A stretch of DNA of 64,000 bases from an uncultured candidate division Zixibacteria bacterium (GTDB taxonomy: Bacteria; Zixibacteria; MSB-5A5; GN15; FEB-12), in assembly GCA_963707365.1 (NCBI GenBank), contig CAVPPI010000004.1, positions 981,469 through 1,045,468 of the forward strand, written 5' to 3'. The position numbers and the translations under genes were made by a program. Of this stretch, positions 42,634 to 59,510 are shown piece after piece. Position 1 is the stretch's first letter, and each line of letters starts with the position of its first letter. The notes under the pieces were generated by a model. It was not told the DNA's origin. It worked only from the letters and a program-made list of their open reading frames with translations, and ran no database searches.

Positions 42634-42662
42634 TTGACATTGACGGTCGCGAATGTTAGAAT
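42634..42662 (+). promoter_or_regulatory. near-consensus sigma70-type promoter for the plus-strand cytochrome trio
   Basis: TTGACA (42634-42639), a 17-nt spacer, then TAGAAT (42657-42662). It lies ~90 nt upstream of the ATG at 42753. Confidence 0.45.
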
Positions 42663-42752
42663 AAAACGGCTCAAACAATGACATTCCCCCCTTATGTAGC
42701 AGATAGGGCTTGTGATTTTTTTCACTATTTTACCGTAGGAAAAGGAGGTCCA

Positions 42753-44134
42753 ATGAATCTATCCCCGCAAACCAAAGACACCCCCGTCAGGAATTCAATT
42801 GTCTCTCTTCTATTTACGATAGGGACACTGCTGTGTCTGCTGACGACTGTATCCGCGGGCGAAGGCCCCATTGGGTCAAAGTCATATGATGATTACGACA
42901 CCCCGGACTATTGCGGAAGTTCCTGCCACACTGACTTCTATCAGCAGTGGCGGCAGGCCATGATGTCGCAGTCGTATACTCATCACTGGGATGAGATCGA
43001 GTACTTCAAACTGGCTATCCCCCACGCCGAAAAGGACCCGGTTGTCGCCGAGGTGAAAGCCGGATGTAACGGATGCCATGCCCCGATCTCCTTTCTTACC
43101 GGTGATGTTCCCCCCCGCGCCCCGAAGAGGGCAGCCGGGCTAACGAGGGTGTACAGTGCGACCTCTGCCACACAATTACCGGTCACGAGGGAGACACTCC
43201 GTTCAATTTCAATTTCATTTCCAGTCCCGGAAACGTGAAATATGGTCCCCGCACGGGCGACAACTCCCCGGCGCATGAAATGGCCCAATCCGATTTTCTG
43301 CACACGGCCGAATTCTGTGGCGCCTGTCACAACGAAAAAGACCCCTACGGTATATGGGTGAAATCGACTCACCTTGAATGGAAAGAGGGCCCCTATTCGG
43401 CCCAGGGTGTCATTTGTCAGGATTGCCACATGACCTACGCACCCGGCCAGAGCGCCTCTATGGGAACCGAGTACCCGGATGTCCGCCAGCACCTGTTCCA
43501 CGGCGCCCACGATCCGGGCAAGGTTCGTGGAACTATCGAACTGCGTATTCATCCGGATATTACCGAGGCGGAACCGGGCGAGCCGATCAAGTTTACGATT
43601 GCTCTGTTCAACCAGAAGACCGGGCATAAATTTCCAACCGGCTCGGTTGAGGATCGCATCGTGTGGATGCACGTTGAGGCGACCGATGCTGAAGGCAAAG
43701 TTTATCACCTTCCGGTCGATTTGAAAGGTTTCGAGGGCGAGGAGTATACTGTTGGCGCCGATGTGCTCGCCTATCAGGACATGGGCATCGCCCTCGGTGA
43801 TCCCAATTTCAAGGGCGTGCAGCGCGATGGTATCCCTGTCGGCGATCGCATATTCCGCATGCCTTATTTTGACCCACAGGGACGCATGACTATTCAACAG
43901 TGGAACACAAAGAGCCTTGGTGTGGATTACCGGCTTGGCCCCCGTGAGACCAAACTGGAAACGTGCACCTTCACTCTGCCGGACGACGCCGCCCCGGGAC
44001 CGATGACCGTCAAGGCCACCTTAAACTATCAGAAACTGGTGAAACCGGTGGCTGATTTTCTCGAGGTCCCCGAAGATGAAGCTGAAATCATAGTAGTTAA
44101 CGATCACTTTACTACAATAGAGGTCCTGCCATAA
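42753..44134 (+). CDS. secreted pentaheme c-type cytochrome (cytochrome c554/NrfA-like heme packing plus a C-terminal beta-rich domain), apparent frameshift in the C7 run at 43110-43116
   Basis: AAAGGAGG precedes the ATG at 42753, and a signal anchor (LLFTIGTLLCLLTTVSA) follows. After frame repair there are five CxxCH motifs: CGSSCH, CNGCH, CDLCH, CGACH and CQDCH. The second frame reads ...PPRPEEGSRANEGVQCDLCHTITGHEGD. Confidence 0.75.
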
Positions 44135-44151
44135 TCAAGGAGGAGGAGAAT

Positions 44152-45343
44152 ATGAAACAACCACTGAAATTGGTTCTCACAGCTGCAGATGGTATTCGGC
44201 ATCACTGCCGCCGCGCTGGTTGTACAGACCGATACGGCTAACGCCATCCCGGCTTTCGCTCGCAAATACTCCATGTCATGTACCACCTGCCACGCACCGT
44301 ATCCGCGGCTCAAAGACTACGGTGATGAGTTTGCCGGTAACGGCTTTACGCTCAAAGATCAGGACGCTCCCCGTTACTATCAGAAAACGGGCGATGAAGA
44401 TCTTGCCCTGATACGAGATCTTCCCTTTGCAATTCGCCTGGAAGGCTTCTTCAAACATCAGACCGAAACCGACAAAGACCTCGACTTCACCACACCGTAC
44501 AATGTCAAACTGCTGTCCGGAGGCGCCCTGTCGAAGAATATCGCCTATTACTTTTACTTTTTCTTCAGCGAGCGCGGCGATGTAGCCGGGCTTGAAGACG
44601 CTTTCCTGATGTTCAACAACGTCTTCAACAGCGAATTGGATATTTATGTCGGTCAGTTCCAGGTATCCGACCCGCTCTTCAAACGTGAACTGCGCCTGAC
44701 CTATGACGACTACCAGATCTATCGAACGACAGTGGGAGCCTCGGATATCAACCTGACTTATGATCGCGGTATCATGCTGACTTACGGATTCGAAAGCGGC
44801 ACCGATGTTATCGTCGAGGTTGTCAACGGTAACGGGTTGGTTGCCGCCGATGATTTCAGAACCTACGACAAGGACAAGTATAAAAACTTCGCAGGACGGA
44901 TATCTCAGGATATCGGCGCCTATGTCAGAATAGGCGGGTTCGGGTACTACGGCAAAGAAGCTCGCTTCGGCAACACCAACGAGGTCTGGATGCTGGCCCC
45001 TGATTTCACCGTCACGCCCAACGACAAACTTACGCTCAACGTGCAATATGTTGAGCGGAGTGATGACAACCCGAACCTTGTCTTGTTGAAACCTGATGAC
45101 GAAGTAAAGACCAGCGGTGCTTTCGCGGAACTGGTGTTCATGCCCGATGGTGAGCGCAGCAAGGTATATGCGGTCGGGCTCTACAACTGGGTCGACTCCG
45201 ACTTCGATGGCGAGGACTATGAGTCCCTCACCGGTCACGTAGGCTACCTGCTGCAAACAAACATCCGGCTGATAGCCGAAGACACTTACGATATTCAGAA
45301 CGAGGAAAATCGTTTTGTGGTCGGATTCATAGCGGCTTTCTAA
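44152..45343 (+). CDS. fused monoheme cytochrome - outer-membrane beta-barrel (Cyc2-like architecture); probable frameshift within the signal peptide (~44185-44190)
   Basis: AAGGAGGAGGAGAAT precedes the ATG at 44152 (MKQPLKLVLTAA). The frame then shifts to ...FGITAAALVVQTDTANA / IPAFARKYSMSCTTCHAPYPRL. There is a single CxxCH right after the cleavage site. About 350 aa of alternating beta-strand pattern follow, ending ...RFVVGFIAAF (terminal Phe). Confidence 0.6.
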
Positions 45344-45496
45344 GTCACACCGGTTTGTTCAAAAAATCAACAAGGGCGGCTTTCACAAGGCCGCCCTTTC
45401 AATTGTCGCACAGCAACTGCGGCATATTCCAGATAATTTCACTACTCATGTCCATTGAATGCGAAAATTTGTCACCCGGTTGCCGATACTATCTGT

Positions 45497-46285
45497 ATGC
45501 GCTACGTTTGCTGGGTCACAGCCACACTGTTCGCATTGGCGTTCGCCTTAACTGCGAAATTCACATTTCACGCTGACAGCGTTTCTTCGGGCGGGCGATT
45601 CGATGATCCTCATCGTGATATTCCGTGCACCGACTGTCATCCCCTGAGAGCCGACGTAAGCTCAGGCGGTCCGGTCAACCGGCAGTTCCGGCAACAGTGT
45701 GAGAAATGTCACGATCCCGGCGCCGCCAATCTGACAGGCATTCCTCTGAATTTCCACAACTCGCGCGAACGGTCATGTTCCGAATGCCACAGCTTTCACA
45801 ACACGGAACAGATATCTCTGGCAAACTCGAGTTTCCTGGTAAGCTTTGAAAACAGTTTCCAGAGGGGACAATGCTATTGTTGCCACGGACCGGGGGAAAA
45901 CATCAAGAGCCTGTCGCCGGGACACAGGGCCGCAGCGGCCATTTTCCATTCGGACTTCGCTGTTCTGGGAAGGCTGAGTTCTTCGCAAACGTGCTTGATA
46001 TGTCATTCCGATGCCAGTGCTCTTCCGGTCGGCGAAATTTCACAATACGCCAAAGGCGCCCCGCGTTTCAAAGAACACGGTAGTCACCCTGTCGGCGTGG
46101 AAGTCATTCCCGGCACCGGCAAACCCGGTAACGCCATCATCGATCCGATTGGCCACAAGATCCAACTTTTCAACAATCGCATGGAATGCTCAAGTTGCCA
46201 CTCACTCTCGGCGGGACACACGCCCTTCAGGCTGGTCTACCCCACCAGAAATGAGTTATGCCGGGCCTGTCATAAAATCGATTAG
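45497..46285 (+). CDS. secreted heptaheme c-type cytochrome
   Basis: The leader is MRYVCWVTATLFALAFALTA (the ORF track gives an alternative TTG at 45455). There are seven CxxCH motifs in ~235 mature residues: CTDCH, CEKCH, CSECH, CYCCH, CLICH, CSSCH and CRACH. Confidence 0.75.
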   Translation: MRYVCWVTATLFALAFALTAKFTFHADSVSSGGRFDDPHRDIPCTDCHPLRADVSSGGPVNRQFRQQCEKCHDPGAANLTGIPLNFHNSRERSCSECHSFHNTEQISLANSSFLVSFENSFQRGQCYCCHGPGENIKSLSPGHRAAAAIFHSDFAVLGRLSSSQTCLICHSDASALPVGEISQYAKGAPRFKEHGSHPVGVEVIPGTGKPGNAIIDPIGHKIQLFNNRMECSSCHSLSAGHTPFRLVYPTRNELCRACHKID

Positions 46286-46320
46286 CCCTTATCTTCTCTA
46301 AGGCAAAAAACCTCACAAAA

Positions 46321-46347
46321 AAGAGGAGAGCTTTTGGCTCTCCTCTT
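46321..46347 (-). terminator. intrinsic terminator of the OmcS-like gene (the hairpin is shared by the convergent genes)
   Basis: A perfect 11-bp stem aagaggagagc/gctctcctctt encloses a 5-nt loop. On the minus strand it is followed by TTTTTTGTG. It begins 34 nt after the stop at 46381. Confidence 0.6.
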
Positions 46348-46380
46348 AGTGAGGGATGCAATCTGAAAATTCAGATTACA

Positions 46381-47436
46381 TTAACCACCTTGTACGTGAC
46401 ACTGATTACATACTTCCTGATAACGAGTGCCGTCGCCGTTCTCGCCCCAGTTGGCCGCACCGGTCGCCCAGATAATGCCGAAAGCATTCTGGTTACCGTG
46501 GGCTTTGTGGCAAGACATACAGCTCGGGGTCAGATCAGCAGGAGCGCCGGTCCATGGCGTTCCCCAGTCACCCCAGTCACCGGTCGCACTCATCACCTGA
46601 ACGCGGTAGGCGCGTCCGGAGAACGTAGCGGTGCTCGAGTGACCACCCGTTATGGCGCCAATATTGGCGTCTGCGGTCGGGTGACGATACCATTCGGTCT
46701 GGGTCGGAGCAGCGGCGTTTCTCATGTTAGCGTCGGCTGACGTACCATGGAAATCCGTGTGACAGCCCTGACACCAGGCACCGTAAGCCGAGCCGGTCGG
46801 ATCCGGTTCGTTGAAGAACACGTTCTGAATGTCATAGTGGTCGCCACCAAAGGCGGCCGACGCTTCATAGATGTCCTTCGTCAGGTCATTGGTTCCAACA
46901 GCGTAGCTCAGACCGGGGCCTGATACTCCGCCTGCGGCATAAAGCACATTGCGATAGGGATTGTTGCCCGCGGCAACGAATCCACCATAACCGTGTTGCT
47001 GGTGACAGTCAACGCAACTGAGACCATCGGCGTTGGCGAAAGTACCCCCCGGGGCAACATCCGTCGAACCGAGAGTGTGACCCGTCGCATCGAAATACGG
47101 GGCCGTGTTATCACGGTTCAGGGCGCCTGCCTGGCGGCCGTTCGTCGGAACATTACCGCCATTGGCAGCCAGCACGTCAGGAGCGAATGTCTGATTGTCG
47201 TGACAGGCTAAACAGAGATTGTTTATCTCGTCACGCAACAGAAAATGATACGGACCTGAAGCACCGAGGCCGACCGTGATGCCGGTACCATCGGAATTGT
47301 ACCCGTGAGTCTGACTGTAGTGCATCACGTGGCACTCAGCACAGTTGAGCGATGCACCCGTATGGTAATCGCCGGCAATTGCGCTGGAGGCAAGAAGCGC
47401 GAACGCCGCGATTCCTACCAGGATGAGTTTCTTCAT
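46381..47436 (-). CDS. OmcS-family hexaheme c-type cytochrome (candidate nanowire-forming cytochrome)
   Basis: GGAGG sits 8 nt before the ATG at 47436. The leader is MKKLILVGIAAFALLASSAIA. There are six CxxCH motifs. Motif-for-motif, the order matches my recollection of G. sulfurreducens OmcS: YHTGASLNCAECHVMHYS, LL..x7..CLACH, GH...APGGTF...CVDCHQQHG, AWCQGCHTDFH...RHP, CMSCHKAHG and a C-terminal CNQCH. Confidence 0.75.
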   Translation of the reverse strand: MKKLILVGIAAFALLASSAIAGDYHTGASLNCAECHVMHYSQTHGYNSDGTGITVGLGASGPYHFLLRDEINNLCLACHDNQTFAPDVLAANGGNVPTNGRQAGALNRDNTAPYFDATGHTLGSTDVAPGGTFANADGLSCVDCHQQHGYGGFVAAGNNPYRNVLYAAGGVSGPGLSYAVGTNDLTKDIYEASAAFGGDHYDIQNVFFNEPDPTGSAYGAWCQGCHTDFHGTSADANMRNAAAPTQTEWYRHPTADANIGAITGGHSSTATFSGRAYRVQVMSATGDWGDWGTPWTGAPADLTPSCMSCHKAHGNQNAFGIIWATGAANWGENGDGTRYQEVCNQCHVQGG

Positions 47437-47560
47437 GAGTTTGACCTCCATACCTTTGCTCTTAAAAAGTTAAACTCGTTGAATTATGGTTAATAAGGCT
47501 TAGTTCTGAAAAATGAGAATACGTTTCAGGACGACCAAACTCCCCGAAAGGAGCACAGCA

Positions 47561-47576
47561 TGTGAGAAATTTCACA
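47561..47576. promoter_or_regulatory. perfect CRP/FNR-type palindrome TGTGA-N6-TCACA in the leader of the OmcS-like gene
   Basis: The sequence is TGTGAGAAATTTCACA, centred ~132 nt upstream of the ATG at 47436. Both half-sites match the CRP-family consensus exactly. Confidence 0.4.
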
Positions 47577-47658
47577 AGCGTCAATTTTGATTGTCCGGTC
47601 TTTGTTAGCCCCTTTTTAGTCATGTTGTCTGCGTCCTAGCTACCAACGTGGTAATATA

Positions 47659-47674
47659 TCACAATACCTTGTGA
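47659..47674. promoter_or_regulatory. second 16-bp inverted repeat, TCACA-N6-TGTGA
   Basis: The sequence is TCACAATACCTTGTGA, centred 98 bp upstream of the first palindrome. The half-sites are in swapped order. A weak TTGACA-17-TACCTT promoter candidate lies at 47697-47725. Confidence 0.3.
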
Positions 47675-47833
47675 AAAAAGTATCTTTACCTGCGAAAAGG
47701 TAATAAAAACGGTCTTATTTGTCAAGTGCTTTGTGTGGAATTTTTTGCAGGAATCTGTTGTGCGGATGCAAGTTGCCATTTTTACGTATGCTCCATAGGT
47801 GTAACTATAAAGAATACGTAAGGTTAGGCGAAT

Positions 47834-48860
47834 TCATTTGGTCTCAAAACGCTGGATTCGACTGCCTATTCGCTCTACGATAAAGAAAACTGAGTCATTT
47901 GCCGCCGCGATATCGGCCGGATATCGGAATTCACCGGGGCTAATACCATATCCCCCAACTATTTCACGAAATGTCCCGGAGCTGTCAAAGACTTTTACCA
48001 CCTGCCGAAGGCCATCGGCGACCCAAATGGCTGGCCGCCCTTCCCTATCGGACATAATCTCTATTCCGGACGGAAACGACACGTCGCCGCGCTCAATCTG
48101 ATGACCGCTGAATCCATATAGAAAAGCACCATTGGTATCGAATACTTTGATTGCCGGTTCAGCGTACAGGTCTGTCACGAACAAACGATCCCGCCAGATC
48201 TGAATTCCCAGAGGAGTATTGAACTCAGAAGGTCCCCCGCCTTTTTGACCGATAGTCCTTTTCGAGTTCAAAATACTCATCAAGCACCATTATGGTGACA
48301 ATATCGCCGGTCGTTATGACGTAGAGATTGTCCTCGCTGTCGATAGCGAGGCTCTGCGGCTTTATCGTCAGGGAGGTGTCGCCATAAAGCGTGTTCAGGT
48401 ATACTTTTTGAAGCGATTTGCCCCTGAAATCGAGCACATCCAGATAATCCGCAAGGTTGTCGGAGAGGATTATCTCCCCCAGCTTGTTTACTGCCAGATC
48501 GCGTGGTTCTCCTTTGATCAGTCGACCGGACCGCTGCTCGATAACAAAGTGCTCGAACGAGTATTTGGGGTTGAGCAACTTATCGTATATGACCACCCGG
48601 CCATTGCCGGCATCGGTGACAAAAAGTTCATCGGCCGATTTATCGAAAAAGAGGGAACCGGGGCTGCGAAGGTTCTTCTGCCAACCGTCATCAAAGGCAA
48701 TTGCGGTAATATTGAAGTCGAGGGCCGGTGGTGTGTCCTGTGCTGCAACCGCCACAGGAGATGCCAGACAAAGAAGCAACGAGGCAATAACCACGGGCGC
48801 GACTTTGCGAATCTCAGTTCTTTGAAAACAGATCGGAGAGTTCACTAACGGCATCCTCAA
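47834..48860 (-). CDS. secreted NHL-repeat beta-propeller protein, one apparent frameshift near 48230-48280
   Basis: The signal peptide is VVIASLLLCLASPVAVAAQD. Repeated NHL-type blades include LFVTDAGNGRVVIYD, LAVNKLGEIILSD and LFVTDLYAEPAIKVFD. ORFs 48225-48860 and 47834-48283 are consecutive parts of one gene. Confidence 0.7.
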
Positions 48861-49404
48861 CCATCTTTTTGGCCAGGTTATCGGCCGACCTCACGGCGCC
48901 GATACCGAAGGCAATTTCCCCCTTGTCGCCACGACCGTTGGAATTGGCCACCCATACGGTTTTTTTCGTAGCACAATCGATCAGGCGGCAATTGAACGCA
49001 ACTTCGGGCACCCGTCCCAAAAAGCTGTTATCATATTCTTCATACTCAATCGCAGCTCCTGTCAACAGAAGATCAACACCGAGACTGGCAGCGAGGCTGT
49101 CAATCTGAGCATCGGAAAGCAGCGACGAAGATCTGATTCTGAATTGTCTGAGGCTTTCGTACAATTGGCCGAATTCCACAGTCTCAAACCGGCTCTGTCC
49201 GGCCATGGCGTTCAGAAAATAATCGGTTAGTTTTTCGGCAGCCTTTTCCCTTCCGCTAAGATTCTCAAACGGCAAAACGGCTACTCGAGATGTGGAAGGC
49301 AACTGACTGTCGATGCGTCTTTTGGCCGTCAGATTTGACGCACATCCGGTCAGCATCAATATTATCAGTCCTATCGGAATTGTCCGTGTCAGAATATGGA
49401 ACAT
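48814..49404 (-). CDS. lipoprotein (LpoB/TolB-N-like, VAVLPFENLSG motif)
   Basis: The ATG at 49404 opens MFHILTRTIPIGLIILMLTGCAS, which contains a lipobox L-T-G-C. The VAVLPFENLSGREKAAEKLTDYF motif resembles small periplasmic-face OM lipoproteins. Confidence 0.6.
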   Translation of the reverse strand: MFHILTRTIPIGLIILMLTGCASNLTAKRRIDSQLPSTSRVAVLPFENLSGREKAAEKLTDYFLNAMAGQSRFETVEFGQLYESLRQFRIRSSSLLSDAQIDSLAASLGVDLLLTGAAIEYEEYDNSFLGRVPEVAFNCRLIDCATKKTVWVANSNGRGDKGEIAFGIGAVRSADNLAKKMVEDAVSELSDLFSKN

Positions 49405-49408
49405 ACCG

Positions 49409-50014
49409 TTACCTCGATACTCTGCCGAATGATTCGGCCACTTCATGACACACTTTCGTAGTCATCGCGCCCAGCGTATGGGTTTCCCCGAAGGAAAAGA
49501 CAGGAAACTTGGGACCACCCTTGCGGGTGGTTTCATAGCTCCAGACTACCCGGCCGGTCTGGCAGTCGATAAAACGGACAATCACCGCCACCAGAGGGAA
49601 TTCGTCCTGACCTGAACGCACCATCGTGAAGTCTTTAACGGCGCCCACGAATATGCCCTCGACTTGCGCCTGTTCACCGATAGCCATAGCCTGTTCGCTG
49701 GTCAGTTCATCCAGCGCGTTTACCATATCCTGTTTGACTACCGCCTTAACCACCTTCTCGACATCACCCATGTTGGCCACGGAAACCGTATTGAGCATAA
49801 GCAATTCGGTCACGAAGCTGGAGGTCACTTTGTCGGAAGCATTCTTGTCGGTGGTCAGATTTGAAAACGGCACGACCGCGACGCGCGAATAGAAGCCAAA
49901 ATCGGCCTCGTCGTTGACATACATCCGGTTGCTGCCGCACGATGCGAGCGTTAACAGAAAACCGAAAGCAAGAAAGAGCTTGAGCTTTAACATAGCATTA
50001 CCTGTTTTTTTCAT
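49409..50014 (-). CDS. lipoprotein, paralog-like to the downstream one (VAVVPFSNLT motif; DUF799-like)
   Basis: The lipobox is LTLASCGS. It shares the motif VAVVPFSNLTTDKNASDKVTSSF and the GxxIEG/LLTGAV-type pattern with the 48814-49404 protein. It overlaps the barrel gene stop by 4 nt. Confidence 0.6.
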   Translation of the reverse strand: MKKTGNAMLKLKLFLAFGFLLTLASCGSNRMYVNDEADFGFYSRVAVVPFSNLTTDKNASDKVTSSFVTELLMLNTVSVANMGDVEKVVKAVVKQDMVNALDELTSEQAMAIGEQAQVEGIFVGAVKDFTMVRSGQDEFPLVAVIVRFIDCQTGRVVWSYETTRKGGPKFPVFSFGETHTLGAMTTKVCHEVAESFGRVSR

Positions 50015-51745: not shown

Positions 51746-53904
51746 TAGTCTTCTCCCGTAGGATGATGACAGTTAGCGTAACAGGTACTGGTCGTAGCAT
51801 CAACTTCCTCCCAGCCGCTTATGTGACCACCGAAGATGAATGCGTGCGACGGCGCCCCGGCAGTCGGGGAACAGGGAGGAAAGATGTAATTGGAGCCGTG
51901 AATATTCCCGATTCCGGATCCGTTGTCACAGGCAGGATCCTGGTCGTCATCATAGCGCCCGGCATGACAACCGCGGCAGGACTGACCGTTGCGTCCGGCT
52001 CCCCCCGGATCGGTATGGGCGCGACGGTCGTGGTCTGCGAATCGCGATACATTCTCCGAATTGAACACATAGTAGTTTTCATCATGACAGCGCACACAGA
52101 ACTGCCTCTGGGCGCTCGGGAACAGCGTCCCGATAACAGGCTCGCGAAAATACGTCTCGACATACAACATGCCGCTGTTATCACTGCCGTGCCCCGTCGT
52201 TTCATGACAGTCAAAGCAGCTTATCACGTCATGCAAAGCCGTCTGGTTGAACGGCGGCAACATCGTGGCCGTGAAGTTGTTCACCGAACCCGGCACTGTA
52301 TAGGGATTGTTCCCCTGTGCCCGAACCGGGTGATAGGAAGAATTCAGAGGATCGAACTGGGTATATACATCGATAACTGTTGCCGCCGGGTCAGAGAAAG
52401 GCGCCAGCGATGATCCCCCCGGCACCTGTGCTTCAACCGACATAGCGCCGTTGCCGTCGTGACACTTCAGACAGAAAGAATTCTGCACCTCCACCACCCA
52501 ACTTTCAAGAAAGGCGCTGTTCAAATCGCGCGTGAAACTGCTGAAACCGGTAAGGGCCTGACCGTTATCGGGGTCTCTCAGTTCCACAAAACCGTTGGCA
52601 TGATAAGCACCATTGATATCGCCGCTGAACGCGATTCCTTCCATATGGCACACACCGCAGTCATTATTGGTGACCGTGTCGGTCACACCGATAGCATTGA
52701 CATGGTGAGCGTTCAGACCAAACTCACCGAGGATGGCTCGACGCGTACCCCGGGCGGTAGCGTGACACGCTACACAGGAGCCGCCGATACCGGGATTATG
52801 AACGTTATTGGCTGTGGGCGTTGAGTAATCGCGGCCGTGGCACTCGTAGCAATGTTCGGTCGACGCAGCCGTGTGTTCCGTAACAGAGGCCGGCAAAGGC
52901 GGAAGGGTGAGCCCCTCGATAGCATCGGCCTGGGCGACACCATCAGATGACGGATGACAGCCAAAACAGAAGCGCCGGACCTGCGCGTTATCATTACGGA
53001 TGTCTGTCAGCCCGTACCAGCCGGGCCTTTGATCGCTCAGGAGGTAGTTGTTTCCCCCCAACCCGCCGTAACCAATAGAACCGTGCGGGTTGTGACAATC
53101 ATAGCACGGCAGACGCATCCCCGATGTCACATATCCCCCGCCCGTGGTAATTCCGTGCCCGCTACTGGCGTTGGGGTTTATTGATCTGTCATAATAATAG
53201 GCTATCGTGCGTGAGGTATCATCCATACCGACCGGTCCGTCAACACGGTGGCATTCCAGACAGAGGGCATAATTCTCCGCCTCCAGCCCAAGCTGCGAAC
53301 CGGTGATACCGCTATAGGTCGTATCGAGCATATCGTGTGGAGCGACTGTACCGTGCGGATTGTGACAGTTGTCGCAGGAACCGTAACCGAACCAATCTTT
53401 GACAGGCATGTCCTGGTCGGCATAGTGCGGTGAGAAAAGACTGTTCTCCCAGACGACCCGTCCCGGCCACCTCACCCGGTTCTCCAGGCCAGGCAACCGC
53501 GTGCCGCCGCTGTTGAATTCAAAATAACCCGGATCCGATGAACCGATTGGCAGCCGGTCGGATTCCTGAGCCGGATAACCCGCTGTGCCCCCCGTCGGCT
53601 GGTCAGCGTGACAACCGCCTGAAGAAGCAGAAAAACATAGCTCGTTGGAATTGTAAGTAAACAAGCCGTATGGGAACGTATTGTCAGGATCATGGCTCAC
53701 ATGACACTGGGCGCAACTCCCCTGAGGATAATCCGGCGTTCGCAGCACGCCGTTATCAACCGAACCGTGAGGAGATTGCCTATACTGACTGTCATCGGCG
53801 CCGACCGACGCCGCAAACCAGAAAAGTATAGCGCCAAGGGCAACAATCGCCCGGGCGAGGCGCATCGATGAAATGTATCTTATTTGTTGTGACATTGCTG
53901 ACAC
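51742..53904 (-). CDS. secreted multiheme c-type cytochrome, 12 canonical CxxCH plus two atypical motifs
   Basis: The leader is MRLARAIVALGAILFWFAASVGA (an alternative start is at 53865). By direct reading it has 12 CxxCH, a CYANCH (CX3CH) near the C-terminus and NELCFSASSGGCH (CX7CH). The last sits where the hexaheme paralog has NELCLSCH. Confidence 0.8.
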   Translation of the reverse strand: MSAMSQQIRYISSMRLARAIVALGAILFWFAASVGADDSQYRQSPHGSVDNGVLRTPDYPQGSCAQCHVSHDPDNTFPYGLFTYNSNELCFSASSGGCHADQPTGGTAGYPAQESDRLPIGSSDPGYFEFNSGGTRLPGLENRVRWPGRVVWENSLFSPHYADQDMPVKDWFGYGSCDNCHNPHGTVAPHDMLDTTYSGITGSQLGLEAENYALCLECHRVDGPVGMDDTSRTIAYYYDRSINPNASSGHGITTGGGYVTSGMRLPCYDCHNPHGSIGYGGLGGNNYLLSDQRPGWYGLTDIRNDNAQVRRFCFGCHPSSDGVAQADAIEGLTLPPLPASVTEHTAASTEHCYECHGRDYSTPTANNVHNPGIGGSCVACHATARGTRRAILGEFGLNAHHVNAIGVTDTVTNNDCGVCHMEGIAFSGDINGAYHANGFVELRDPDNGQALTGFSSFTRDLNSAFLESWVVEVQNSFCLKCHDGNGAMSVEAQVPGGSSLAPFSDPAATVIDVYTQFDPLNSSYHPVRAQGNNPYTVPGSVNNFTATMLPPFNQTALHDVISCFDCHETTGHGSDNSGMLYVETYFREPVIGTLFPSAQRQFCVRCHDENYYVFNSENVSRFADHDRRAHTDPGGAGRNGQSCRGCHAGRYDDDQDPACDNGSGIGNIHGSNYIFPPCSPTAGAPSHAFIFGGHISGWEEVDATTSTCYANCHHPTGEDY

Positions 53905-54842
53905 CCCGCGATATAATCTAAATCACCTTCAATATATGACCACAGCAACGATTTCTCATCCGAACCGCCGTGGGCCTTGTGACAACTCCCGCAGAATATC
54001 CGATTGGATTCCGCCGGCTGACGCGAGCTAATAAAATCACTTGCCGTTGGTACTTCGAACGGTAACCTGATAATACCATTGGCATCATCAGCGAACCCTT
54101 CCCCCGTTCCGGAAATCCAGTGGGGAACATCCGTATGGCCATCGACTGGAAACTCGTTAATCGCCACATCCACCGGATGGCTATTGAAGTGGGCCGGTGG
54201 TGACGCCACACTATTTGTCTCGAGCTGATTGTGGCAGGAAACGCACCAGGCCGAGTAGGCCTGTCTGTATCCGATGTTGTCCCTGCTGTACGCCGTCGCC
54301 GATCCGCCGGCAGTCGGCGGAATGTCCGGAGAAAATTCAGTGAAGAGATCGCTGCCCTCTTCCAGAACAAGGGAGTCACCCACACCGGCCGGATCGAAAA
54401 GCAAGTTGCGGTAGTTGCCGTTACCGTGCGGAGCGTGACAACTGGCGCAGTTTAACTCTACGAACTGAGCTTCCACTTGAAGGGGCACGATACTCCCCAG
54501 CGCCAGGTTGTGGCCCATCGGATTATCAATGCCGATGATATCAAAATATCCTCCGGCACTCTGGCCGGACAGGGCCGCATCGTACATCTGCACCGGCCGC
54601 ATGATATCCGGCGCTGTCGGATCGGTACCATCATGGCACGACAGGCACAATTCGTTGACAGTATTTTTCAGAAGTAAAGTCGAGAACGGACCGCCGGGTA
54701 GCGGCTCTCCTTCTTTGGAGGCGTGCTGAATGTGACAATCCTGACAGCGTAGATTCGGTTCAACGTGCCACTGCCCGCTCCGTACGCCGGAAGCGATAAA
54801 AAATAATGTAAGCAAAGTCATTGTTCGAGTCATCACAGTCAC
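53880..54842 (-). CDS. OmcS-family-like hexaheme c-type cytochrome, operon-internal paralog
   Basis: The leader is MTLLTLFFIASGV. The six CxxCH motifs follow the same order and spacing logic as the 46381-47436 protein: CQDCHIQH, LLL..x7..CLSCHDG, GHNL...CASCHAPHGNGNYRNLL, AWCVSCH...HP, CGSCHKAHG and a C-terminal CQQCHNK. Confidence 0.7.
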   Translation of the reverse strand: MTVMTRTMTLLTLFFIASGVRSGQWHVEPNLRCQDCHIQHASKEGEPLPGGPFSTLLLKNTVNELCLSCHDGTDPTAPDIMRPVQMYDAALSGQSAGGYFDIIGIDNPMGHNLALGSIVPLQVEAQFVELNCASCHAPHGNGNYRNLLFDPAGVGDSLVLEEGSDLFTEFSPDIPPTAGGSATAYSRDNIGYRQAYSAWCVSCHNQLETNSVASPPAHFNSHPVDVAINEFPVDGHTDVPHWISGTGEGFADDANGIIRLPFEVPTASDFISSRQPAESNRIFCGSCHKAHGGSDEKSLLWSYIEGDLDYIAGCQQCHNK

Positions 54843-54844
54843 CT

Positions 54845-55801
54845 CTATTGCAGCGTGTAGAACAGCAATCTGCCGGTCTCCTCGAGCACAGCCATCCGAT
54901 TGTCTATTGTCCCGAGCATGGCCACCGGACTAATCGTGCTATTTTCGAAAGTCAGTACCGACAGTTGGGTGCCGGTCTGGTCAAAAATGCGAAACTGGCT
55001 GTTGGTATCATCAGCCACCCAGACGAATCCGCGAGTGTCAACCGCCACCGCAGCCGCCTCCCATCCTCTCTGCTCCGATGGCTGATTCCACCCTCCCTGA
55101 TAAAGAAATTTCCCATCGATCGCAAATACCTGCATCGGAAAGTTCTTCTGGTCGGCCACTATCAGTTTGCCGGGCGCCGCGGCAGTCATATACGCCGGGG
55201 CAAGCAACTTACCCTTGCCGGAACCGTCGCGAACAACAATCTCCTTAAATTCCCATTGCTGATCGAACCGGTAGATACAACCTGCATGGCGGTCCAGGAT
55301 AAGATAACTCCCGGTCGGTTCACGGACAATCTGGTCGATAGAGAATTTATCAGAAATACCGTTCAGGTCCGCCACTGTATCAATCACACCGGTATTGTAT
55401 TCATTAACGGCAAATATGATTGTCTTGTTCGCCAACGTGTAAAGAAGACGGGAGTCGGATTCGAAGCAAATAGAGCGAGGTTGTTCAAGTCTTACCTGCT
55501 CTCCCACCGTCCAGAGAAACCGGCCCTCCAAATCTACAATTACAATACGATTTGTGCTGAGGTCACTGATGGCAATCTTTTCGCCGTTCGGAGAGACAGT
55601 CATCGCCGATGGACGGTCGAGTTGGTAACGACCGCCTATCAAAATATGTTGACTCTCAATAGCCTGGGCAAGAGCCACGGAAACGTTTGCCGTGACGACT
55701 ATACCGGCTACGAGTAGCCAGAGGCAGGAGAAATAAGTTGCTATCTTGTACGCAGTGCTCTCCCTGGCCCTTAATGAGACACCGTGTGACAAATGATGCA
55801 C
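54845..55801 (-). CDS. secreted NHL-repeat beta-propeller protein
   Basis: A hydrophobic leader (CLWLLVAGIVVTANVSVALA) is followed by repeated blades: IAISDLSTNRIVIVDLEGRF, YLILDRHAGCIYRFD, LIVADQKNFPMQVFAIDGKF and VWVADDTNSQFRIFD. The start is uncertain because it overlaps the upstream gene end. Confidence 0.7.
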   Translation of the reverse strand: MHHLSHGVSLRARESTAYKIATYFSCLWLLVAGIVVTANVSVALAQAIESQHILIGGRYQLDRPSAMTVSPNGEKIAISDLSTNRIVIVDLEGRFLWTVGEQVRLEQPRSICFESDSRLLYTLANKTIIFAVNEYNTGVIDTVADLNGISDKFSIDQIVREPTGSYLILDRHAGCIYRFDQQWEFKEIVVRDGSGKGKLLAPAYMTAAAPGKLIVADQKNFPMQVFAIDGKFLYQGGWNQPSEQRGWEAAAVAVDTRGFVWVADDTNSQFRIFDQTGTQLSVLTFENSTISPVAMLGTIDNRMAVLEETGRLLFYTLQ

Positions 55802-58800
55802 AGCTTTCTATCTTTTTCAGCCACCAGTATTGCCGCGTAGTCAGACGAGTGTGGAGAGTGGCAACCGACACAGTTGAGAGGCTCCTTGGTCCGCGGGTCT
55901 GTCACACCAACACCCATCGGGTGATAGTGCGTCTCAACAGCACCCTCGTGACAGGTCAGGCAAAGCTCCATTATGTCGGATGTAGCCAGTAAACCGGCAT
56001 TGGTACTCGTATGTGGTTGATGGCAGTTGCCGCAGTCTTCAAAAGCCACGGCGTGTTGATTCTTACCTTTAAATTCCGAACCCTTATGACACGAGAGGCA
56101 CATCGACGGACCCTCTTTGAGAAGAAGACTCGAACCGTACCCGACGTGCGGACCATGACATTGAACACAGCCGTCCGCTTTGGTCAATGGAGCATGTACA
56201 ACAGCATTGGCGGTGGTCTCCAGAAAATCCTCGTGACATGCGAAACACATCTGGTTAACCGGAGCCACGAACTCATGGGCACTCATTCCATCGTGACACG
56301 AAGTGCATTCCCCATCGGCAAACGGAGCGTGCATGTCGGGCAGCAGAAGTCCTTTCGAACCGGCCGGACCGGCGTGAGCCGCGTGGCAGTTCTGGCAATC
56401 GACGCCTTCAAGGCTGAACCCTTTGTGCGCCGTACGCAGGTCGCGCGACGACAGATCGTGACACTGCCCGCAAAGCTCCATCTTGGAGTCAGTCAGCAGA
56501 GCCGTCTGATTTCCGGCATGAGCCACGTGGCAGGCGCCGCAATCTCCATCGGCCACCGGCGCATGCGGAGCACCCTCGGTGATCTGGCGGTTTATATCTT
56601 CGTGACAGGATATACAGAAACTCTCTGCCGGTTTGGTAGTCAGGGCCGGATAGGCCGACGAGTGAGGCTTGTGGCACTCAAGACACTGGCCTTCCTCGAA
56701 CGGGCGATGGTTGACAGCCATCTTCTGCTGGTCTTTTATATCTTCGTGACAGGACACACAGAGCAAACTCCCGTCAAGCCTCAGCAGACCCTTGTAGTCG
56801 GCAGCGTGCAAACTGTGGCAGGAACTGCACTCTTCACCGGCAAACGGAGCATGCTGGTGTTCCAATTCAGCCGATTCCGCCACCGTCTCGTGACACGCAC
56901 CGCAGAGATCCATGGTCGAAGCTACGAGAGCAACTTTGTTATCAGCGCCCTTCTCGTGGCAATCCTCACAACCACCATCGGCAAACGGCGGATGAAGCAT
57001 ATTTCTTACCAGCTTGTCCTGCTCGCTGACGTGCGGATTATGACATTCCAGACAGTCAGCCGTCGTTATATCATACCCCCCGTGAACTGTCGTCAGGGCA
57101 TCATCCACATCATGACACGTTACACAAAGATCCGGAGCGCCGGCAATCACAAAGCCGACATTGTCCGAACCGTGAGCGGCATGGCAGGCATCACATTCGC
57201 CCTGCGCTACCGGAGCGTGGGCATTCTGCTTGCGGAAAGCCTCCTTTAACTCATCGTGACAGGTGTAGCATAAATCGGCGGAGATGCCCGTTAGCTTGGG
57301 AAGCTGACCTACCATCAGTCCACCGACGTTAATTTTGGTCATCCTACCGGTGACAAGCTTGGCTTCATTACCGCCGTGAGGATTGTGACAACCGGCGCAA
57401 TCACTTTCAGCAGCCGGCGTATGAACAAATTCTTTTTCAAGGTCAAGACCTTCATAGTCGTGGCAGGATGCACACAGGTCGTTGTTTCGCGCCGTCAACA
57501 GGTGCAGATTGTCTGCACTGTAGTGCGGCTGATGGCAACCCTGGCAATCATCCACAGCCGGAGCATGAGGATTGGCCATGTTGACTCGCTTATTGATATC
57601 AACGTGGCAGGCAAGACACATCGCAGCACCTTCACCGCGGACCAGATGCGGCGTGTCGCTGTAGTGCGGCAAATGGCAGTCGGAACACTCGCCGGTCAGG
57701 TATGGCTGATGCCCCGAGGAGGCATTCAACGCCTCGCGGTCAGGTTCGTGGCATTCCCCGCACAACTGCGCCGACGGAGCTTTCAGAAGCCCCTCGGGAG
57801 TCCCCTCGTGAGGCTTGTGGCAGCCGAGACAGTCATCGAGGGCGGCATGAACGTTCGAGGCAGCATCGCGCGCAGCGGCAAAATCTTTATGACAACCAAG
57901 ACACAGCGAAGCATCGTCGGCCTTCGCCAACGAAGCATTATCAGAACCGTGTACCTCGTGACACCCACTGCATTCACCGGTCACTACCGGCATATGCGGC
58001 CTCTGACCACCTCCGGTCAATACCGCGTCGTGGCACTCACCGCACAGAGTTCGCTGGTCCGCCTTGAGAAGATTGCCGAACCGCGATGAGTGCGCAGTGT
58101 GGCAATTGTCGCAATTGTCAGCCTCGACAGCGGGATGAGGATGCGATTTGGAGATATTGTCAACGATACCATCATGACAGGCCGAACACAGTTCACCCAC
58201 CGATATTCCCTCTTCAAAAGCTACTTTTCCATCGGCATCAGGAAGAGAGTGACAGGTCTCGCACTCACCCGAAGCAAACGGCGCATGAGCATCATCGGCG
58301 AGCAAACCTTTTGTATTCGAGGCATGGGCGGCATGGCAATCACTGCAAGGCAGGTCTCCCGCATTGCGTTCTTTGTGTACGCTCACCCAGGTTTCATCGG
58401 ATTGATCATGGCAGGAACCGCACAGACTGTTGATTTCGGCCGTGAGAAGGCCGGGGTAACTGCTGTTGTGAGAAGTATGGCAGGTCAGGCACTCCATCTG
58501 GTCGTACGGGGCGTGGATGAATTCTTTCGCGCGGGCGGCATCCATATTGTCCTGGTGGCACATTAAACAGAAATGCTCCACCGGCGCATCGGCGGCCGGC
58601 TCCCAGAGCATACCGGTTTCGTTGGAACCGTGCGGATTATGGCAATCCCAGCATTTGCCGGAGGCAACCGGGAAGTGTACGCTTCCCTGGCTGTACTTTT
58701 CTTTGAGGTCGGCGTGACAACTATAACACAATTCGGACGTAACGTCCTGAAGGATCAGCTTCTGAGCAAAGCCGTGGCGTTTGTGACAACTCTCGCAGTT

Positions 58801-58968
58801 CTCGTCTTTGATCGGCTTGTGCGCAAATTTCACAGCCGAATAAACCTGCTTTTCTTTCTGGTGACAGTCGTAACATGTCTTTGCCGCAAACGCAGACGTG
58901 GCAAAAGCCAACGTGATTACAATGGTAAAGCTGATCGCTGTTTTGTATGTGACAAGTGTCCGCCGCAC
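55771..58968 (-). CDS. giant secreted multiheme c-type cytochrome with 42 CxxCH motifs (paired-CXXCH repeat architecture)
   Basis: The leader is ISFTIVITLAFATSAFA. I counted 42 CxxCH in 1065 aa by hand, about one per 25 residues. They are arranged as ~21 repeats of LCxxCH-(~15-20 aa with HxP)-CxxCHxxH. Confidence 0.9.
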   Translation of the reverse strand: MRRTLVTYKTAISFTIVITLAFATSAFAAKTCYDCHQKEKQVYSAVKFAHKPIKDENCESCHKRHGFAQKLILQDVTSELCYSCHADLKEKYSQGSVHFPVASGKCWDCHNPHGSNETGMLWEPAADAPVEHFCLMCHQDNMDAARAKEFIHAPYDQMECLTCHTSHNSSYPGLLTAEINSLCGSCHDQSDETWVSVHKERNAGDLPCSDCHAAHASNTKGLLADDAHAPFASGECETCHSLPDADGKVAFEEGISVGELCSACHDGIVDNISKSHPHPAVEADNCDNCHTAHSSRFGNLLKADQRTLCGECHDAVLTGGGQRPHMPVVTGECSGCHEVHGSDNASLAKADDASLCLGCHKDFAAARDAASNVHAALDDCLGCHKPHEGTPEGLLKAPSAQLCGECHEPDREALNASSGHQPYLTGECSDCHLPHYSDTPHLVRGEGAAMCLACHVDINKRVNMANPHAPAVDDCQGCHQPHYSADNLHLLTARNNDLCASCHDYEGLDLEKEFVHTPAAESDCAGCHNPHGGNEAKLVTGRMTKINVGGLMVGQLPKLTGISADLCYTCHDELKEAFRKQNAHAPVAQGECDACHAAHGSDNVGFVIAGAPDLCVTCHDVDDALTTVHGGYDITTADCLECHNPHVSEQDKLVRNMLHPPFADGGCEDCHEKGADNKVALVASTMDLCGACHETVAESAELEHQHAPFAGEECSSCHSLHAADYKGLLRLDGSLLCVSCHEDIKDQQKMAVNHRPFEEGQCLECHKPHSSAYPALTTKPAESFCISCHEDINRQITEGAPHAPVADGDCGACHVAHAGNQTALLTDSKMELCGQCHDLSSRDLRTAHKGFSLEGVDCQNCHAAHAGPAGSKGLLLPDMHAPFADGECTSCHDGMSAHEFVAPVNQMCFACHEDFLETTANAVVHAPLTKADGCVQCHGPHVGYGSSLLLKEGPSMCLSCHKGSEFKGKNQHAVAFEDCGNCHQPHTSTNAGLLATSDIMELCLTCHEGAVETHYHPMGVGVTDPRTKEPLNCVGCHSPHSSDYAAILVAEKDRKLCIICHTVSH

Positions 58969-58977
58969 AACTACCTC

Positions 58978-59436
58978 TCACTTTCTGGCTGGCGCCGTGA
59001 TGTATTTCTCACTCACCTTGAAGTCGACAAGCTTGAAAGCCAGAAGATCATCACGCTTGAAATGAGGTGACGTCAAGACGTAAAAACCCCAGCTCTCCTG
59101 CTTAATCTCACCTTCAAACGAAACCCTGACCCTCACCGCCGGATTGTACAAAGTATCAGACATCTGCAAAGCTTCACCCGTCTGCGTTATTCCCAGATGG
59201 GGATTAAAGCCTATGACAGTTGCCTCATACTCCTCCTCACCAATATAAAACGGTTGCTCCATTCCGACAGTATCAAATTGCACAAATTCGGGATAAAGCC
59301 TGTGGCGGGTCTCAATAATAAAATACTCTACTTCCGAGCTTACATCGGTGGAATCGGCCTCTTCGGCACAAACTTGAGAGGATGACATGAAGATCGGAAG
59401 GATGCCAAAAATTAACGGTGCGATATACTTATTCAT
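58978..59436 (-). CDS. small secreted protein of unknown function, first gene of the cytochrome operon
   Basis: The 152-aa ORF has the signal peptide MNKYIAPLIFGILPIFMSSSQVCA and no heme motif. I recognise no family. It ends 9 nt before the 42-heme gene. Confidence 0.55.
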   Translation of the reverse strand: MNKYIAPLIFGILPIFMSSSQVCAEEADSTDVSSEVEYFIIETRHRLYPEFVQFDTVGMEQPFYIGEEEYEATVIGFNPHLGITQTGEALQMSDTLYNPAVRVRVSFEGEIKQESWGFYVLTSPHFKRDDLLAFKLVDFKVSEKYITAPARK

Positions 59437-59482
59437 GGTCTGTTCAGGTCTTCCTTGTTATATTTTGAACGTCCTTGTGAAT

Positions 59483-59510
59483 AAAATAACAAATTTTGTC
59501 CTGTTGTCAA
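59483..59510 (-). promoter_or_regulatory. candidate sigma70-type promoter of the nine-gene cytochrome operon
   Basis: Read on the minus strand: TTGACA (59510-59505), a 16-nt spacer, then TATTTT (59488-59483). A second TTGACA lies 20 nt further upstream. The element is ~45 nt upstream of the ATG at 59436. Confidence 0.35.

Follow-up and report, generated by a model that had tools for sequence, protein, structure and literature searches.

A cytochrome island in Zixibacteria

We analysed a 64-kb stretch of Zixibacteria DNA (from contig CAVPPI010000004.1; the whole stretch is referred to as the window), in which a 17-kb island at 42.6-59.5 kb holds all of the c-type cytochrome genes. The island is probably composed of two adjacent electron-transfer modules of known type: a Cyc2 cassette on the plus strand (42.7-46.3 kb) and, on the minus strand (46.4-59.5 kb), a divergent relative of the omcS-companion (osc) cluster of Geobacter. 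Three genes make up unit i on the plus strand: those of a pentaheme cytochrome (42678/42753-44134), of a barrel fused to a one-heme segment (44189-45343) and of a heptaheme cytochrome (45455/45497-46285). Unit ii is a single minus-strand hexaheme gene, OmcS-like1 (open reading frame (ORF) 46381-47451). Unit iii, also on the minus strand, runs from 59436 down to 47834 and encodes, in this order, a 152-amino-acid protein, a 42-heme cytochrome, an NHL propeller, a second hexaheme, a 12-heme cytochrome, a barrel, two lipoproteins and a further NHL propeller. Probable true starts are 42753 for the pentaheme, 44152 for Cyc2, 45497 for the heptaheme and 47436 for OmcS-like1. The genes of the island are as follows.

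42753-44134, plus strand: secreted pentaheme cytochrome (four CxxCH and one CxxxCH), c552/c554-like; frameshift in a C7 run at ~43112
44152-45343, plus strand: Cyc2-type fused monoheme cytochrome-porin; intact ORF from 44189, probable ATG at 44152 behind AAGGAGG, frameshift at ~44186
45497-46285, plus strand: secreted heptaheme cytochrome, seven CxxCH
46381-47436, minus strand: OmcS-like1 hexaheme, monocistronic; candidate filament subunit
47834-48860, minus strand: NHL six-bladed propeller 1, secreted; matches Pfam NHL/DUF5128; frameshift at ~48250
48814-49404, minus strand: lipoprotein B (lipobox LTGC), predicted single-domain OscG equivalent and paralog of lipoprotein A
49409-50014, minus strand: lipoprotein A (lipobox LASC), predicted OscF equivalent with a PelC/GNA1162/LpoB fold by sequence and profile matches
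50011-51745, minus strand: large outer-membrane beta-barrel of ~28-30 predicted strands, short OscE homolog; frameshift at ~51254
51742-53895, minus strand: secreted 12-heme cytochrome with one additional CxxxCH; region like MtrC/MtrF domain II/IV (PF22113, 40.8 bits, cut-off 30)
53880-54836, minus strand: OmcS-like2 hexaheme, within the nine-gene operon
54845-55801, minus strand: NHL propeller 2, secreted; matches Pfam NHL
55771-58968, minus strand: 42-heme cytochrome of 21 paired-CXXCH units (Paired_CXXCH_1), longer relative of the 26-heme OscI (GSU2495 type)
58978-59436, minus strand: small secreted protein of 152 amino acids with a signal peptide, first gene of the operon

According to the ORF listing and translations, the island carries 78 canonical CxxCH motifs (four in the pentaheme, one in the heme-barrel, seven in the heptaheme, six in each hexaheme, 12 in the 12-heme and 42 in the 42-heme protein) plus two CxxxCH motifs, CGSSCH in the pentaheme and CYANCH in the 12-heme protein. 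A first-pass annotation of the window had reported 79 canonical motifs in seven secreted proteins; the seven cytochromes are confirmed, but its total is reached only if the CGSSCH of the pentaheme is included. Every long CxxCH-bearing ORF of the window lies inside 42.6-59.0 kb, and the two single motifs found outside the island fall in stop-to-stop frames of 81 and 103 codons that match no called gene. Given that every genuine CxxCH ORF of the 64 kb is located in the island, the clustering is not due to chance. The remaining inventory of the first-pass annotation also held up: two outer-membrane barrels (AlphaFold2 models with ~28-30 and 16 strands), two lipobox lipoproteins (LASC and LTGC), two NHL propellers (both matching Pfam NHL), a small secreted protein (152 amino acids, with signal peptide), the promoter-like TTGACA-17-TAGAAT of unit i at 42634-42662, and a terminator-like hairpin/U-tract belonging to the OmcS-like gene (46347-46321, minus strand). 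The nine minus-strand genes do overlap or follow each other tightly, as had been stated, but when starts are placed by the intact orthologs of the closest relative (L083, GCA_040756055.1) the gaps reach ~17 nucleotides (nt) and not 10 nt or less.

Five genes within ~19 kb contain a one-base frameshift: the pentaheme (~43112), Cyc2 in its signal peptide (~44186), NHL propeller 1 (~48250), the barrel (~51254) and a flanking ABC transporter (~60670). Because all five are intact in L083 and at least one break falls in a homopolymer (the pentaheme break is in the C7 run, that of the barrel in CCCAAATTT), we read them as long-read errors of an unpolished assembly rather than as signs of decay. Overlapping same-strand ORF pairs elsewhere in the window (1618-2823/2645-3811, 20969-22246/22044-23099 and 35752-37758/37634-38986) hint at further frameshifts.

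The plus-strand Cyc2 cassette

Cyc2 proteins are defined by a signal peptide, one CXXCH, the motif AXPXFAR[Q/K][T/Y] just upstream of it, PXL four residues downstream, a 16-strand porin and a length of at least 365 amino acids, and the AXPXFAR[Q/K][T/Y] motif has been described as unique to the family (Keffer et al., 2021; PMC8406198). Leaving the signal peptide aside, the window protein shares this architecture. In translation its motif region reads ANAIPAFARKYSMSCTTCHAPYPRL, that is, AIPAFARKY-SMS-CTTCH-APY-PRL. The single CXXCH, CTTCH at residues 31-35, is invariant among 52 homologs; AIPAFARKY ends three residues ahead of it, and PRL stands at the expected spacing behind it, with P39 and L41 nearly invariant in the homologs. 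The AlphaFold2 model of 44189-45343 shows a disordered heme region followed by 16 long strands (predicted local distance difference test score (pLDDT) 76, predicted template-modelling score 0.76), and Foldseek matches it to 16-strand general porins (E 4e-11). The protein has 384 amino acids, or ~396 once the frameshift is repaired. As to the signal peptide, the ORF from 44189 gives a weak one (MVFGITAAALVVQTDTANA) and the ATG at 44152 gives MKQPLKLVLTAA, one base out of frame; in L083 the signal peptide of the ortholog is complete. Judged by sequence and predicted fold, unit i is a Cyc2 cassette, as every feature tested is present with the exception of a clean signal peptide, which is interrupted by the frameshift. 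The protein database holds 5034 homologs, from Zixibacteria, GN15 and Ignavibacteria.

The pentaheme encoded ahead of Cyc2 has a pentaheme c552 as its closest solved structure (PDB 5ze8, E 2.4e-7). It scores 44.7 bits with the NCBIfam model for ExtKL (NF040886), where the cut-off is 250; we thus regard it as a distant relative and rejected it as an ExtKL member of an ExtHIJKL cluster. An assignment as NrfA-type reductase was likewise rejected, since the protein has no CxxCK. Another idea is that the cytochromes are electron-transfer subunits of a periplasmic respiratory reductase of the Nrf, Hao/ONR, Mcc or Ttr type. The pentaheme does resemble NrfA weakly (E 0.14-0.4) and also matches NrfH weakly, but neither CxxCK nor another catalytic motif is present, the island contains no molybdopterin, Fe-S or catalytic partner gene, and the best relatives of its cytochromes are pentaheme c552, ExtKL, OmcS and OscI. 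We consider a reductase highly improbable.

Pentaheme and Cyc2 genes recur as a conserved pair, on their own, in four unrelated contexts (L081, L082, L085 and L086); in pairing the two, the window resembles other FCB-group genomes. The heptaheme, found in the window and L083 only, has Paired_CXXCH/c7 matches and a DmsE-family match under threshold; it is probably a periplasmic carrier. Classical iron oxidisers generally use Cyc1-type carriers. Cyc1 is the named partner of Cyc2 in Acidithiobacillus ferrooxidans (PMC8406198), whereas the Cyc2 of the window is partnered with a c552/c554-like pentaheme. A heme-porin gene also occurs near an OmcS gene elsewhere: in two Geobacteraceae OmcS loci (L007 694-2175 and L016 750-2210), a ~490-amino-acid, one-heme relative of the window Cyc2 (E about 1e-12) is encoded a few kb upstream of the omcS homologs. 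Its N-terminus reads AIPAFSYEH...CTACH..P.L, without the exact FAR[Q/K][T/Y] motif, and these loci constitute a second, independent instance of such an arrangement.

The minus-strand osc-type cluster

In Geobacter, the osc operon spans GSU2493-GSU2504. Two papers (PMC13194489, PMC12977616), both citing Shen et al. 2025 (Cell Chem Biol 32:239), give the roles of its products: OscC is an OmcS-like hexaheme, OscD acts in filament morphology, OscE, OscF and OscG in secretion and OscH in folding, and OscI is the 26-heme GSU2495. We compared the island with 78 OmcS-homolog loci from Geobacterales, Nitrospirota, Myxococcota, Bacteroidota and others, which came from a genome scan with an OmcS fragment (best identity 70%). 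Geomonas, Geomobilimonas and Citrifermentans are included and the G. sulfurreducens locus is not among them; the osc names of the Geomonas genes were given by position and not by matching to G. sulfurreducens genes. The canonical order in the 78 loci is NHL, OmcS (1-3 copies), OscD, OscE, OscF, OscG, OscH and OscI. Here, OscD is a YncE-like propeller lipoprotein of ~480 amino acids, OscE a protein of ~750 amino acids without Pfam match, OscF a GNA1162/LpoB-like lipoprotein of ~199, OscG a lipoprotein of ~410 and OscH a prolyl isomerase of ~630 amino acids, and OscI carries 26 hemes.

Both in the window and in its relatives, an OmcS-family gene is clustered with companion genes of this kind. 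Barrel, lipoprotein A and lipoprotein B follow each other in the order of OscE, OscF and OscG. Lipoprotein A matches the Geomonas OscF-position protein with E 9e-24, is encoded directly after the barrel as OscF is, and has homologs in 54 of the 78 loci. Lipoprotein B (196 amino acids) matches the Geomonas OscG-position protein twice, in its C-terminal half (E 1e-15) and in its N-terminal half (E 3e-3), the OscG type having two domains and the window protein one. In the 42-heme protein, Pfam Paired_CXXCH_1 matches 21 stretches (E 5e-197), at 25 residues per heme, and the protein finds the 26-heme proteins of 32 OmcS loci with BLAST E values of 5e-91 to 5e-101; like OscI, it may be a peptide-minimal chain expected to cross the periplasm. 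The intact ortholog of NHL propeller 1 matches solved NHL domains (E 1.5e-17), and the propeller has weak matches in 19 loci to the one encoded just upstream of the omcS homologs. All products of the cluster are secreted, as in osc.

There are also differences. The poly-heme protein has 42 hemes instead of 26, the barrel is ~190 residues shorter than OscE and lacks its central insert, and, unlike in osc, the gene order starts with the poly-heme gene and ends with that of the OmcS-type subunit. Two osc components are missing: tblastn found no match to the YncE-like propeller lipoprotein OscD anywhere in the window, whose own propellers are of the NHL type and without lipobox, and none to the prolyl isomerase OscH, which could lie elsewhere in the genome; no island protein has a Rotamase domain. 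Conversely, the window adds a 12-heme protein, a second NHL propeller and the 152-amino-acid protein. The latter has no match in Pfam, NCBIfam or PDB. The MtrC/MtrF-like region of the 12-heme protein fits a surface location. On these homologies, units ii and iii together form a divergent relative of the Geobacter osc cluster, with the core features present (OscG in part), rearranged and extended. What is shared across phyla, namely the barrel, two PelC-fold lipoproteins, a poly-heme cytochrome, an NHL propeller and an OmcS-type subunit, are the best candidates for a core, with OscD and OscH apparently dispensable or open to replacement. The OmcE nanowire clusters of Desulfuromonadia (bioRxiv 10.1101/2025.10.22.684050) are built from the same kinds of parts, with a large barrel and a filament subunit beside two multiheme cytochromes and two propellers, but their subunit is an OmcE-type tetraheme rather than an OmcS-type hexaheme, and the window differs further in that its propellers are not lipoproteins and that PelC-like lipoproteins are present.

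The two hexahemes, each with six CXXCH motifs, are homologs of OmcS. For OmcS-like1 the sole PDB match is OmcS (6ef8), with E 1.6e-3 for the single sequence and 3.2e-10 for a family profile of 47 sequences, and the heme motifs align collinearly, from the N-terminal (F/Y)H(S/T)G...CxxCHxMH through the last heme. OmcS 6ef8 is also the sole match of OmcS-like2 (E 3e-4, single sequence), which is a paralog of OmcS-like1 (25% identity over the full length, E 2e-22). Homologs of OmcS-like1 number 1031 and belong mostly to Zixibacteria and Eisenbacteria. The motifs CAECHVMH and CQDCHIQH of the window hexahemes align with CEGCHTMH of OmcS. In OmcS, His16, three residues past the first CXXCH, is reportedly a heme ligand between subunits; its equivalent, H44 of CxxCHxxH, is invariant in 47 OmcS-like1 homologs. 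Because OmcS-like1 is a separate gene with a conserved promoter of its own and a strong terminator, it would be expected to encode a major structural subunit, and by analogy with OmcS it is likely the major extracellular one.

The hexahemes could instead be monomeric like OmcT, OscC and OmcJ, with barrel, PelC-like lipoproteins and NHL propellers exporting or anchoring them or another polymer, e.g. a polysaccharide matrix, so that the cell would have a redox-active surface and no filaments. Among these paralogs of Geobacter only OmcS is known to polymerise, and GSU2501-type genes may predate OmcS (PMC12977616). The Pel polysaccharide exporter provides the closest solved relatives of lipoprotein A, and OscD and OscH are missing from the window, both of which would suit surface display. 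However, the island and its relatives are free of glycosyltransferase, PelB-type TPR and polysaccharide genes, the histidine motif between subunits does not vary, and OmcS-like1 is arranged as the gene of a major subunit. We therefore regard display without wires as quite unlikely.

The intact ortholog of the barrel, 82% identical, is modelled by AlphaFold2 with pLDDT 91.2 and ~28-30 strands, and Foldseek against PDB returns MtrB first (6r2q_B, template-modelling (TM) score 0.54, E 7e-10), then TonB-dependent receptors and then LptD; as modelled, its fold is that of a generic, very large barrel. No match was found in Pfam or NCBIfam, MtrB/PioB included, and on sequence we rejected membership in the MtrB/PioB family for this reason. 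Comparing profiles with hhalign, the barrel family and the OscE-position family are related with 95% probability in local mode (E 2.9e-8, covering the N-terminal 210 residues and a collinear C-terminal segment) and 97% in global mode, with 4% for a reversed profile and 1.7% for a Cyc2 porin profile as controls. A HMMER profile search of 1.84 billion representatives recovered 78 relatives of the barrel and did not reach the typical 750-amino-acid OscE proteins.

If the barrel were a sheath in the manner of MtrB, it could enclose a multiheme in the way MtrB encloses MtrA, namely the 42-heme protein or the 12-heme protein whose gene is translationally coupled to that of the barrel, and electrons would pass to surface OmcS-like proteins and the MtrC-like domain, leaving lipoproteins and propellers a role in assembly only. 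The island does resemble MtrCAB and porin-cytochrome (Pcc) systems in several respects: MtrB is the best fold match of its very large barrel, the ortholog of the 42-heme protein, whose paired-CXXCH packing is MtrA-like, reaches 410 bits with the DmsE/MtrA family model over eight repeated stretches, the 12-heme protein matches MtrC/MtrF domain II/IV, and its stop codon overlaps the start of the barrel gene. The founding Zixibacteria genome, RBG-1, was moreover reported with MtrAB-like genes and without homologs of the extracellular cytochromes of Geobacter and Shewanella (PMC3903129). Yet the barrel has no sequence match to the MtrB/PioB family, a TM score of 0.54 is generic among very large barrels, with TonB-dependent receptors and LptD scoring much the same, and its specific homology is to the OscE-position protein. 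It is followed by OscF/OscG-like PelC-fold lipoproteins which, like the NHL propellers, are foreign to Mtr/Pcc systems. Its neighbours are these lipoproteins and the 12-heme protein of 717 amino acids, which at 60 residues per heme would be too bulky to thread a barrel as MtrA does; no multiheme of MtrA/DmsE or OmaB size adjoins it, and DmsE-family similarity is confined to the repeats inside the 42-heme protein and elsewhere under threshold. We consider a true Mtr/Pcc conduit in the island unlikely.

The lipoproteins suggest what else the barrel may do. A profile of lipoprotein A and OscF finds PelC (5t11, E 9.7e-9), then PelC of the PelBC complex (9h80_C, 2.7e-7), and then GNA1162 and LpoB. 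In Pseudomonas aeruginosa, PelC forms a ring of 12 lipoproteins on the periplasmic side of the export porin PelB (PMC12141448). A corresponding ring in Zixibacteria would be a prediction from homology, the ~28-strand barrel of the window is unrelated to PelB, and its presumed cargo would be a cytochrome and not a polysaccharide. Nevertheless, homology to PelC speaks for a gate that exports a polymer rather than for an Mtr-type sheath. With a barrel homologous to the OscE-position protein and OscF/OscG-like PelC-fold lipoproteins encoded after it, the sequences indicate a gate for export or anchoring more than a sheath as in MtrAB/Pcc. In two relatives of the barrel (P0338 and P0357, ~820 amino acids), N-terminal segments of ~200 residues match the barrel family and are directly followed by a complete NHL six-bladed propeller. 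In P0338, whose cluster includes Omnitrophota sequences, the propeller looks inserted into the barrel, since further barrel-matching stretches and a long non-NHL C-terminal part are present. Such natural fusions of two components that the window encodes in separate genes argue that propellers and barrel of the island may function in direct contact.

Possible coupling of the two modules and their biological meaning

The database proteins nearest to those of the island belong to Candidatus Zixiibacteriota. Most L083 proteins are ~82-94% identical to those of the window, with values down to ~66-77% for the heptaheme, lipoprotein B, the 152-amino-acid protein and the NHL propellers. L083 repeats the 17-kb layout in full, with every gene in place and unbroken, and shares the flanking ABC transporter and glutamate dehydrogenase genes. 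The operon is kept in four other Zixibacteria altogether (L001, L002, L083 and L084). In L001, L002 and L084 the order is 42-heme, NHL, hexaheme, 12-heme (six-heme in L001), barrel, lipoprotein, lipoprotein, NHL and OmcS-like; NHL propeller 2 is conserved in all four relatives, and the 152-amino-acid protein in L083 and L084. The trio of unit i is not adjacent in L002 and L084, and the L001 contig ends just past the OmcS-like gene. The island therefore comprises two separable modules, and their adjacency is lineage-specific.

Two flanking arrangements were seen in these genomes. In L084 (CP070756.1, a 3.27-Mb Zixibacteria genome; 14284-20254), the terminal OmcS-like gene is called at just 248 amino acids and is directly followed by MenB-, MenH-, MenD-, MenF- and UbiE-like genes of menaquinone biosynthesis, with no Cyc2 cassette there. 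The gene immediately upstream of the operon encodes an MsbA-like ABC exporter, both in the window (59677-61435, frameshifted) and in L083 (1-2067) and L084 (1-2077); the gene before it is radical-SAM/SPASM in L083 and L084, and encodes a 446-amino-acid membrane protein (61502-62842) in the window.

A link between the modules might be provided by their regulatory signals, which are listed below.

42316-42331, no strand assigned: perfect CRP-type palindrome TGTGACTTTTTTCACA, intergenic, upstream of unit i; conserved in L083
42634-42662, plus strand: promoter-like TTGACA-17-TAGAAT of unit i with extended -10 TG, 11/12 consensus
42711-42726, no strand assigned: CRP-type box TGTGATTTTTTTCACT with one mismatch, in the pentaheme 5' leader; direct repeat of the 42316 box
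46321-46347, minus strand: hairpin and T-tract resembling an intrinsic terminator, after OmcS-like1; 11-bp stem with six GC pairs, then TTTTTGTG
47561-47576, no strand assigned: perfect CRP-type palindrome TGTGAGAAATTTCACA upstream of OmcS-like1; same place in L083 and L001
47697-47725, minus strand: predicted promoter of OmcS-like1, TTGACA (47725-47720), 17 nt, TACCTT; from a four-way alignment
59483-59510, minus strand: promoter-like TTGACA-16-TATTTT of the nine-gene operon, overlapped over its -10 by a one-mismatch CRP-type box at 59476-59491

Perfect TGTGA-N6-TCACA sites occur twice in the window, versus 0.03 expected, and CRP-type boxes are found there only in promoter regions of the cytochrome units. 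These sites suggest that one CRP/FNR-family regulator could control both modules; such a regulator was not found among the eight other ORFs of the window that were tested. One-mismatch boxes inside the cytochrome genes were discarded, as TGT GAN NNN TGT CAC A encodes C(D/E)xCH. The spacer between operon and OmcS-like1 (47452-47833, ~380 nt) keeps its length in four Zixibacteria. In it, all four aligned relatives carry CTTGACAA unchanged, with a -10 of the form TAnnTT 17 nt further on; from this promoter OmcS-like1 would have a leader of ~240 nt that holds the CRP-type box; Rfam gave no match there or anywhere else in the window. The terminator-like hairpin behind OmcS-like1 is the strongest of the region. 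On the other side of the island, unit i is separated from the glutamate dehydrogenase gene by an unusually long (~600 nt), GC-rich intergenic region, which contains a 15-nt direct repeat, GTC(G/T)GTCTCCCTGCC, at 42451-42465 and 42576-42590, 125 nt apart.

In the mechanism that we infer, including its direction of electron flow, apocytochromes exported by Sec would mature in the periplasm. Cyc2 would exchange electrons with dissolved iron and hand them to the periplasmic pentaheme, a heptaheme being present as well in this lineage. OmcS-like1 would polymerise through the conserved histidine of CxxCHxxH, by analogy with OmcS, and the polymer would be exported or anchored through the OscE-like barrel of ~28 strands, whose periplasmic mouth the PelC-fold equivalents of OscF and OscG may cap. 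The NHL propellers could act as assembly or scaffold factors, and the 42-heme OscI-like protein as the periplasmic wire that charges the polymer. The 12-heme protein, by its MtrC-like domain, and OmcS-like2 might serve as surface or adaptor cytochromes, and the shared CRP-type operator would place both modules in one regulon.

Several points weigh against this reading. Identity to OmcS is only ~25%, and OmcS is the one member of its family known to form polymers. Homology between the barrel and OscE is visible to profiles only, BLASTP against OscE-position proteins yielding one weak match. With MtrB as best structural match of the barrel and a 42-heme protein built of MtrA/DmsE-like units, a conduit role would be conceivable, and OscD and OscH have no counterparts in the window. 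The Cyc2 cassette lies next to the operon in the closest relative L083 only, so that functional coupling of the modules is argued from the operator motif alone. Finally, all that can be said here about function in Zixibacteria comes from genes and models.

The first-pass annotation had proposed an island of the extracellular-electron-transfer type in a lineage outside the model organisms, and this is borne out, as is the presence of a Cyc2-type fused cytochrome-porin, by motif and fold, and of OmcS-family hexahemes, with OmcS as their sole PDB match. The neighbourhood is conserved in relatives, and catalytic cytochromes of the Nrf, Hao or Mcc type, or a CxxCK, were not found. Other parts of the proposal went further than the data. 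A representative of the porin-cytochrome conduits had been inferred, against which the homology of the large barrel to the OscE-position protein and the PelC-fold lipoproteins speak in spite of the fold match to MtrB. A complete wire from periplasm to exterior goes beyond what the window shows, which holds no inner-membrane quinol oxidoreductase. Three architectures had been seen in one locus; the modules do lie side by side here, but in part by accident, with Cyc2 adjacent in the closest relative and located elsewhere in the others. The combination had also been called undescribed, which overstates the island, given that units ii and iii match the published osc cluster and that OmcE clusters are of like make-up. 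The finding itself is real, conserved and biologically coherent: both module types are known, and what is new is an osc variant without OscD and OscH, rearranged and extended, in Zixibacteria.

Aquifers, sediments and the deep subsurface commonly harbour Zixibacteria, none of which has been cultured. Surveys based on FeGenie have flagged them with single marker genes of iron oxidation and iron reduction (PMC8478452, PMC7005843), and we found no open paper joining Zixibacteria with cytochrome nanowires, the survey of Shen et al. 2025 lying outside that search. The island provides a complete and conserved cluster of the nanowire type, in one lineage beside Cyc2, and with it a concrete genetic basis for the two-way iron cycling proposed for Zixibacteria. 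As a minimal osc variant in an uncultured phylum, it offers a natural guide to the core of the nanowire machinery, while PelC homology and barrel-NHL fusions yield testable ideas on how cytochrome subunits cross the outer membrane. Part of its value lies in the shared operator that ties the Cyc2 cassette to the OmcS-type gene. Tentatively, the cluster might constitute a stripped-down machinery for OmcS-type filaments, consisting of a barrel with PelC-like rings and docked NHL propellers and lacking prolyl isomerase and YncE propeller, which is fed by the 42-heme wire and switched by CRP/FNR together with the Cyc2-pentaheme cassette. If this is true, a single regulon would allow iron cycling in both directions in an uncultured and widespread sediment phylum.

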